Notes under the pieces: model-generated
The model's input: only the letters and a program-made list of their open reading frames with translations
What the model was told of the DNA's origin: nothing
Database searches by the model: none
Program-made: the position numbers and the translations under genes
Shown here: positions 29,508 through 30,008 of the stretch, in pieces
Numbering within the stretch: position 1 is the first letter of the stretch
Layout: every line of letters starts with the position of its first letter
From: Eledone cirrhosa
Lineage: Eukaryota
Reading direction: 5' to 3'
Assembly: GCA_964016885.1 (NCBI GenBank)
Contig: CAXHJY010000856.1
Location: 124,001 to 188,000, forward strand
Length of the DNA stretch: 64,000 nt

Positions 29508-29509
<2 letters not shown>

Positions 29510-30008
29510 ACAATCAAGTTAAAAATGTACATCCACATATGTATACTGAAATACTAGTATGCATATGAATACACACACGTATACATATGTAGATGTACCT
29601 AGTTTTTCACTGGTCACTTTACTGTGAGTGTCCAGCTATTCTGTATGTAAACACACAGACAAACCGGTTTTTAGAGTCATACTGGTTTTTTAGGAAACAC
29701 CTTTCCTCTATTATCCAGAAAGGCCGGAAGATAGGTAAATATTGCTGATGAGATGTAACAACATCGAAACTAGTTCAATATTCCTTGTCTGGCTTTCTGG
29801 AGAATAGAGGAAAGGTGTTTCCTAAAAAACCAGTATGACTCTAAAAACCGGTTTGTCTGTGTGTTTACATACAGAATAGCTGGACACTCACAGTAAAGTG
29901 ACCAGTGAAAAACTCGGTACATCTACATATGTACACGTGTGTGTATTCATATGCATACTAGTATTTCAGTATACATATGTGGATGTACATTTCTAACTTA
30001 ATTGTTTA
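29508..30008. repeat. About 500-bp inverted repeat with a hammerhead at the apex
   Basis: 29508-29712 pairs with 29804-30008 with few mismatches; imperfect pairing continues inward to hammerhead stem I. Confidence 0.92.
29738..29782 (+). ncRNA. Minimal type-I hammerhead ribozyme motif (family C)
   Basis: AAUAUUG-CUGAUGA-GAUGU-aaca-ACAUC-GAAA-CUAG-UU-CAAUAUU: perfect stems I and II, palindromic stem III, GUU triplet. Confidence 0.88.

Follow-up and report, generated by a model that had tools for sequence, protein, structure and literature searches.

The window analysed here, a stretch of 64,000 nucleotides from Eledone cirrhosa, contains an insertion of a 466-nt hammerhead repeat family (29509..30077, plus strand) composed of an inverted arm, an arm carrying the ribozyme and a tail. 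The target is a (TA/CA)n microsatellite, which forms the left flank (27770..29508) and the right flank (30078..31822), and the limits of the insertion are uncertain by about 3 nt because its ends fall in a TA run. The inverted arm, devoid of the loop, lies on the minus strand (29509..29722) and stops, on its outer side, at one fixed end of the family, near unit position 230; the arm with the ribozyme lies on the plus strand (29710..30077) and stops at the other fixed end, near position 302. Unit positions refer to a natural unit, L028:635-1100, numbered from the first base 3′ of the cleavage site. On this reference the window copy reads 231..18 (minus) and then 401..466,1..302 (plus), with 98% identity. 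The two arms share a junction overlap of 13 nt (29710..29722, plus strand), in which unit 401-413 is the complement of unit 18-30 (29793-29805); this overlap is the native outer stem of the unit. The unpaired tail of ∼70 nt (30006..30077, plus strand), situated between the two fixed ends, is part of the element and includes, from 30037, a 14-bp hairpin that is the commoner junction site of the family.

The palindrome reported in a first-pass annotation of this DNA, with near-perfect arms of ∼200 bp, is real. Its arms (29510-29722 and 29793-30005) pair at 208 of 213 positions, with five mismatches, and the fold of 29480-30040 reaches -391.7 kcal/mol (z -46.6), a value equalled by none of 100 shuffles. 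The single hammerhead in the loop, the helix extending stem I and the lack of an ORF in the hairpin, all announced in that annotation, are likewise found, the longest ATG ORFs of the window copy encoding 51 and 50 aa, and other palindromes of the window do mirror hammerhead-like motifs (35897 minus with 39543 plus, 52345 minus with 52527 plus). The interval first given, 29508..30008, does not cover the whole element, the 70-nt unpaired tail at 30006-30077 having been missed.

The ribozyme is a type I hammerhead (29738..29782) with a minimal, palindromic helix III. Its components, all on the plus strand, are stem I (AATATTG/CAATATT, 29738-29744 and 29776-29782), the core CUGAUGA (29745-29751), stem II (29752-29765) and GAAAC-UA-GUU (29766-29775), with cleavage predicted after GUU at 29775. 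Its match to Rfam Hammerhead_HH9 (36.5 bits, E 1.6e-7) is under the gathering score of 52, and no match reached gathering level in an Rfam scan of the entire 64-kb window. Helix III comprises one or two pairs around the palindrome. It resembles that of axolotl HHR_Amex1, with one pair and a palindromic loop, which is active mainly as a dimer (PMC7229834); the axolotl monomer cleaves 6% in an hour while the dimer cleaves well, and ribozymes with such a helix III show poor activity as monomers (PMC7229834). Ready cleavage that opens the loop, as first envisaged, is not supported by the folding predictions, since helix III is minimal and the monomer core is predicted to be paired shut (0.93, 0.93, 0.73); a dimer is predicted to pair via the palindromic helix III with its core freed (-17.8 versus 2 x -7.2 kcal/mol). 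Clamping of the ribozyme by the long duplex, as had been suggested, is not supported either: in the predicted fold, stems I and II pair with unchanged probabilities whether the long arms are present or removed.

The 466-nt repeat family and its insertions

A search with the window element through its own genome (3.0 Gb; 40 of 419 candidates scored) retrieves copies spaced 466 nt apart, in which adjoining units are identical. There are at least 7,677 exact hammerhead cores genome-wide and at least 1,887 insertion ends, counted as exact matches to the 302 end followed by TA (control 0), both figures being lower bounds; stem II pairing is kept through two-sided change (221 cores counted). A type I hammerhead is found in every repeat unit, the units are short, arranged head-to-tail and low in GC (G+C in 170 of 466 columns), and a protein ORF is absent from the window copy, which lacks 98 unit bases. 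Target duplications exceed 4 bp at 9 of 11 informative loci, namely those in which the TA run is interrupted near the end; that of the window copy, which sits in a pure TA repeat, is unreadable.

Metazoan non-LTR retrozymes (Cervera and de la Pena 2020, PMC7229834; Li et al. 2026, preprint 10.64898/2026.07.22.740005) are similarly non-coding, tandem, low in GC and highly self-paired, with a type I hammerhead per unit and target duplications of more than 4 bp (PMC7229834). The 466-nt unit is at or slightly above their reported range of 150-450 bp (PMC7229834). Two further features are of Penelope type: an inverted, 5′-truncated copy accompanies the direct copy in 75 of 93 resolved insertions (63+7+5), and a tail lies between two fixed ends (226-234 and ∼302). 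Constant ends with a constant internal structure, as in MITEs, are not seen among the copies. The window element is almost certainly an insertion of a non-LTR retrozyme; of the non-coding element first proposed, retrozyme or MITE-like, the retrozyme type stands and the fixed MITE-like or rod-like form is not supported.

The architecture of the insertions was established on 97 sequences retrieved for the initial 100 entries in the list of 302 ends, taken in list order and all located on contig C1. As a one-chromosome sample selected by an exact 302 end, it is biased towards young, TA-targeted copies. An inverted arm starting from unit 226-234 is present in 63 of the 97; the others comprise seven short arm remnants (one doubtful), five long inverted arms that leave the stretch, three other inversions, 15 insertions without inversion and four unresolved cases. 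L068 and L133 are host duplications of L067 and L132, respectively; L068 was dropped from the arm analysis, leaving 62 loci, and both were dropped from the duplication and variant counts. Most insertions thus consist of two head-to-head arms whose outer ends are fixed at unit ∼230 and ∼302, 70 nt apart. Their junctions are spread across the unit, mostly with an overlap of 0-5 nt or a small gap; in the histogram, 44 of 62 have an overlap of at most 4 nt or a gap. Adjacent target duplications of at least 9 nt occur at 9 of the 11 informative loci (control mean 0.98, maximum 5), the clear ones measuring 9-12 nt and lying in (TA)n. Inner arm ends just past the cleavage site show no convincing excess, either for the 230 arm (8 of 62 versus 4.0, p 0.045 uncorrected) or for the 302 arm (7 of 92 versus 5.9). 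At the 15 loci inspected for in-register unit variants between arms, variants are too few to decide.

Some members of the family depart from this general picture by their size or composition. L163 (G000:C1:30831200-30841100) is a 9.3-kb head-to-head insertion in which 18 of 18 whole 468-nt units are identical; its haplotype is present at six further loci, and its subfamily is active now or very recently. L118-L120 (G000:C1:95941500-95967500) and L164-L165 each have one arm, of ∼49 and ∼31 units, in which the irregular higher-order recurrence of unit variants suggests satellite-like expansion after insertion. L109 (G000:C1:107307011-107310240) is a palindromic copy in which both arms stop at unit 14 and a GC-rich foreign piece of ∼70 nt replaces the hammerhead.

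The ribozyme-at-apex junction

The junction that leaves the ribozyme at the apex exists at 7 loci genome-wide when sought with a tight pattern and at 11 with a looser one; the linear context of the apex region counts 960 for one variant alone. It is absent from all 97 sampled insertions. The 14-bp tail hairpin, with 49 strand matches, forms the junction of 28 loci, and a junction at stem I proper, the 7-bp stem, gave no match genome-wide. In the unit's own fold, the stem 401-413 / 18-30 surrounds the hammerhead, also in ordinary linear units, and it is the complementarity offered by this 13-bp stem that accounts for the ribozyme at the apex of the 11 loci. The existence of two stem junction sites, used at 11 and 28 loci, indicates that perfect stems are junction hot spots, with the ribozyme stem used less often than the tail hairpin. 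The ribozyme comes to lie at the apex rarely, as a by-product of where the junction falls, and its position there is not a function. The first-pass annotation had asked whether other copies would be apex-centred or plain linear; they are neither, head-to-head arms being the norm.

A self-propagating palindromic element, akin to a MITE or a rod-like retrozyme and selected for its apex ribozyme, has in its favour that the junction recurs at 11 loci against ∼0.01 expected for any one specified pair of positions in 1,887 insertions (1887/466^2) and that two pairs of loci share their geometry (the window with L033, L034 with L192). The fixed apex and fixed ends that such an element implies are not borne out. 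The 11 loci differ in arm length and subfamily variants; the window copy and L033 are separated by six variants common to both L033 arms; the junction is missing from the 97 sampled insertions, the ribozyme-free hairpin junction is commoner, and the ribozyme fold is unaffected by the long arms. This explanation is largely refuted and very improbable. A fold-back artefact of assembly or library preparation deserves still less credence. It would fit the location of the window on an unplaced contig, C883, with flanks of microsatellite only, and the finding that no contig among the matches listed (18 of 843 pieces) bridges the window junction. It is contradicted by the arms themselves, which are mismatched at 5 of 213 sites, stop at the two ends common to the family and include the 70-nt family tail on one side only, and by the 10 other loci on large contigs that share the junction.

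Priming of the two arms and nature of the template

If one arm had been copied from the other by folding back, the copied arm must fit inside the arm serving as template. This is possible at 5 of the 11 apex loci (the window, L033, L185, L186 and L191) and impossible at the other six, where the loop-less arm is longer or has extra sequence; the loop lies within the 302 arm at six of the 11 loci and within the 230 arm at five. The loop-less arm measures 2,185 nt versus 1,231 nt for the loop arm at L031/L169, 682 versus 367 at L032, and 1,146 versus 367 at L036/L182; at L037/L168 it measures 1,683 and faces a rearranged stub, and at L034 and L192 it has unit 234-302, which is missing from the loop arm. 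Across the 62 two-arm insertions the lengths of the arms are not correlated (rho 0.06, p 0.66). Neither fold-back geometry fits 17 of the 62, compared with 19.3 +/- 3.3 under shuffled pairing, and these misfits are similar in age to the rest (minority bases 0.57% versus 0.48%); 45 of the 62, as well as the window copy, are geometrically compatible with it. The two arms of a locus nonetheless represent one haplotype, with 46 of 2,071 polymorphic sites discordant versus 44% after shuffling, and 27 rare variants are common to both arms (72 not shared) versus 0.5 in the shuffled set. Independent arm lengths combined with one shared template point to twin priming, which is probably the insertion route.

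In the snap-back alternative, the first strand folds at the palindrome and copies itself, and later gain or loss of units blurs the geometry. Self-priming of this kind, with an antisense template, has been put forward to explain the inverted repeats of Penelope (PMC3846280). It accounts for the single haplotype of both arms and for the hairpin junctions at 11 and 28 loci, and the window copy conforms to it, a 213-nt arm fitting inside a 368-nt arm. Arrays do alter after insertion, as recurring unit variants in two long arrays show, which loosens the fold-back geometry test. No fold-back nevertheless fits 6 of the 11 apex copies or 17 of the 62 insertions in the sample, the latter number being what independent arm lengths would give, and loci with just one or two internal differences are among the misfits; the short overlaps or gaps at 44 of 62 junctions also speak against it, and the fixed ∼230 end requires an extra stop signal, whereas two starts have been shown in vitro for Penelope-like elements, PLEs (PMC11167929). 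Snap-back is therefore unlikely as the general route; of the early proposal that synthesis snapped back from the extended stem I, what survives is that this stem sets the 13-nt junction. An equally doubtful alternative retains twin priming and dispenses with the rolling circle, the template being a linear uncut multimer of a homogeneous parent array and tandem identity coming from the parent or from one-unit expansion at the DNA level. Hammerhead cutting is dispensable for insertion in vitro, where uncut RNA is the main substrate (PMC11167929), and the cleavage site is crossed by 48 and 49 of 62 arms, so that the template must be either an uncut multimer or a circle. Between these two, the evidence comes from the variants described below.

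On the ribozyme strand, the rare variants that every copy of a locus carries comprise 25 A>G versus 6 T>C (n=53), and the subset of 26 seen in both arms comprises 11 A>G versus 4 T>C, a bias that is weaker per site (19 versus 6, p 0.009) and per locus (15 versus 6, p 0.05). Single-unit variants, with 22 A>G versus 30 T>C (n=259), show no comparable bias (Fisher p 0.0012 versus the locus-wide set), which counts against the linear multimer. The 5′ neighbour is a G at 1 of the 25 A>G sites, in line with the preference of ADAR. Four A>G haplotypes, those of L074, L075, L055/L163 and L053, were searched genome-wide. L074 differs from its nearest sampled relative at three positions, all A>G, and its haplotype is carried by four of four copies, in both arms, at this one locus in the genome. 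L075 shows 8 A>G among 10 differences from its nearest sampled relative, with its haplotype in three copies of one arm at a single locus. The haplotypes of L055/L163 and of L053 are not private, each occurring at seven loci, which means that they were inherited from parents and that long homogeneous parent arrays exist, as the linear multimer supposes; L163 has 18 identical whole units, and the same haplotype also fills a 17-unit arm.

Editing of a multimer would vary among its units, so that A>G clusters confined to one locus and uniform over all its units, as at L074 (both arms) and L075 (one arm), call for one edited monomer that was reread. An RNA edit in every unit implies either that one monomer was read repeatedly or that subsequent expansion at the DNA level multiplied a single monomer; repeated reading suggests itself as the simpler account where both arms carry the edit. 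The pattern lends support, short of proof, to the circRNA model of PMC7229834, and the A>G marks suggest, at the level of sequence, that circular RNA of the family may accumulate. A circular template is probable. In run X4, a single 495-nt contig matching window 29640-30074 spans the unit with a 1-nt deletion; 495 is 465 + 30, the length expected for a closed one-unit loop with 31-letter words, and the contig may represent tandem DNA or a circle.

The insertion process can be pictured as follows. Tandem transcripts would be cut by paired (dimeric) hammerheads into monomers, which would circularise and undergo A-to-I editing. A Penelope-like protein would make a staggered cut of ∼9-12 nt in a (TA)n target, whereupon the target 3′ ends would prime reverse transcription on a single RNA circle, one at unit ∼302 and the second at ∼230, each rolling around it over a random length. 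At their 3′ ends, the two cDNAs would mostly be joined via an overlap of 0-5 nt or a small gap; alternatively, they could anneal at a perfect stem of the RNA, because the cDNAs of both sides of a stem are complementary. Fill-in would finish both strands, and use of the stem that closes the ribozyme as junction would yield a single ribozyme at the apex. The editing step left aside, the whole of this model (twin priming, a likely circular RNA and a Penelope-type enzyme) has a reasonably good chance of being correct; with an ADAR-edited RNA circle included, the balance tips only slightly in its favour. If true, one route would generate the tandems of retrozymes as well as the inverted repeats of Penelope, tails and junction palindromes, and all units of an array would record host RNA edits in germ-line DNA. 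The family is short, young and present in high copy number; its insertion products can be counted in their thousands and its 466-nt unit is a substrate on which the start sites are mapped, so that questions on the insertion of PLEs and retrozymes become directly testable.

Known systems and other elements of the window

That the element is a retrozyme and that its shape is a Penelope shape corresponds to what is already known. Endonuclease-bearing PLEs (Craig et al. 2021, PMC8557442; Arkhipova et al. 2013, PMC3846280; Frangieh et al. 2024, PMC11167929) share with the family partial tandems, an inverted 5′-truncated copy and a tail at one end, as well as microsatellite or AT-rich targets with a target duplication of 8-10 bp (PMC8557442, PMC3846280). 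Palindromes at inverted junctions and two reverse transcription starts flanking the tail are also common to both, the purified Penelope-like protein cutting and extending both strands and starting at two RNA sites, one on either side of the tail (PMC11167929). The family differs by the lack of an ORF and by its tail of ∼70 nt, versus 30-40 in PLEs. In these PLE papers, junction palindromes are ascribed to self-priming or their route is left open, whereas the arm geometry of this family points to two separately primed cDNAs. The formation of tandem and inverted PLE insertions is presented as an open task in PMC8557442 and as unvalidated in PMC11167929. The use of circRNA templates by PLEs to produce tandem cDNA has been proposed in PMC7229834, and the mobility of animal retrozymes is still a proposal (PMC7229834; preprint 10.64898/2026.07.22.740005).

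In the passages on retrozymes that were examined, there is no mention of arms placed head-to-head, of a tail between two fixed ends, of insertion targeted to (TA)n or of A>G clusters that are fixed; the word 'inverted' does not occur in PMC7229834 and occurs once, in a reference title, in the preprint 10.64898/2026.07.22.740005. The combination of a retrozyme with a tail, head-to-head arms and fixed editing marks was not found in full-text searches of the open literature, nor was twin priming for PLEs. Related models may exist in Supplementary Figure S9 of PMC7229834 and in older papers on Penelope.

Comparison with elements of other types is also instructive. MITEs are short, non-coding and palindromic, like the window element; unlike them, it has no constant terminal inverted repeats or length, displays a 70-nt end asymmetry and is a tandem, RNA-derived repeat. 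In the twin priming of L1, linked to the names of Ostertag and Kazazian, two target ends reportedly prime on one RNA and are joined by microhomology, which results in an inversion. The likeness resides in the two cDNAs made from two target ends on one RNA. In the present family, unlike in L1, the start sites are fixed and internal, the arms cover the same sequence and may comprise several units, and the result is a palindrome, which is the majority outcome.

A Pfam scan of 10 window ORFs yielded one GIY-YIG match. The 1.6-kb palindrome at 44882-46563 represents a head-to-head copy, truncated, of a young, high-copy Penelope-like element. The autonomous element behind it has a 4.28-kb unit and a 1,268-aa ORF with an N/T-rich insert, in which the matches to RVT_1 and to a C-terminal GIY-YIG are both under curated cut-offs; a hammerhead-like core lies upstream of the ORF, and two ends 60 nt apart lie in TA runs. 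At five loci this autonomous family shows the same architecture as the 466-nt unit, with no significant homology to it. No linked partner was found in the flanks of 13 odd insertions, and a pattern search of the genome revealed no related hammerheads.

Several other elements of the window have comparable features. A second hammerhead-bearing family, at 52310-52718 and 1474-1827, has two arms, a tail of ∼86 nt and a junction at a short hairpin. The element at 35770-39649 has inverted arms of 1.5 kb (35856-37441 and 38111-39649, 96.7%) separated by a 670-nt spacer, with mirrored hammerhead-like motifs and a 228-codon open frame without Pfam match. On the minus strand, a 366-codon open frame at 1924-3024, outside the microsatellites and without Pfam match, is situated upstream of a hammerhead-like motif of the same strand (1595-1665). 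Short elements are repeated between TA runs at 17043-18534, 20466-21956 and 27143-27625; at their ends they look like the first end of the autonomous Penelope-like family, and to judge by this resemblance they likely form a related family.
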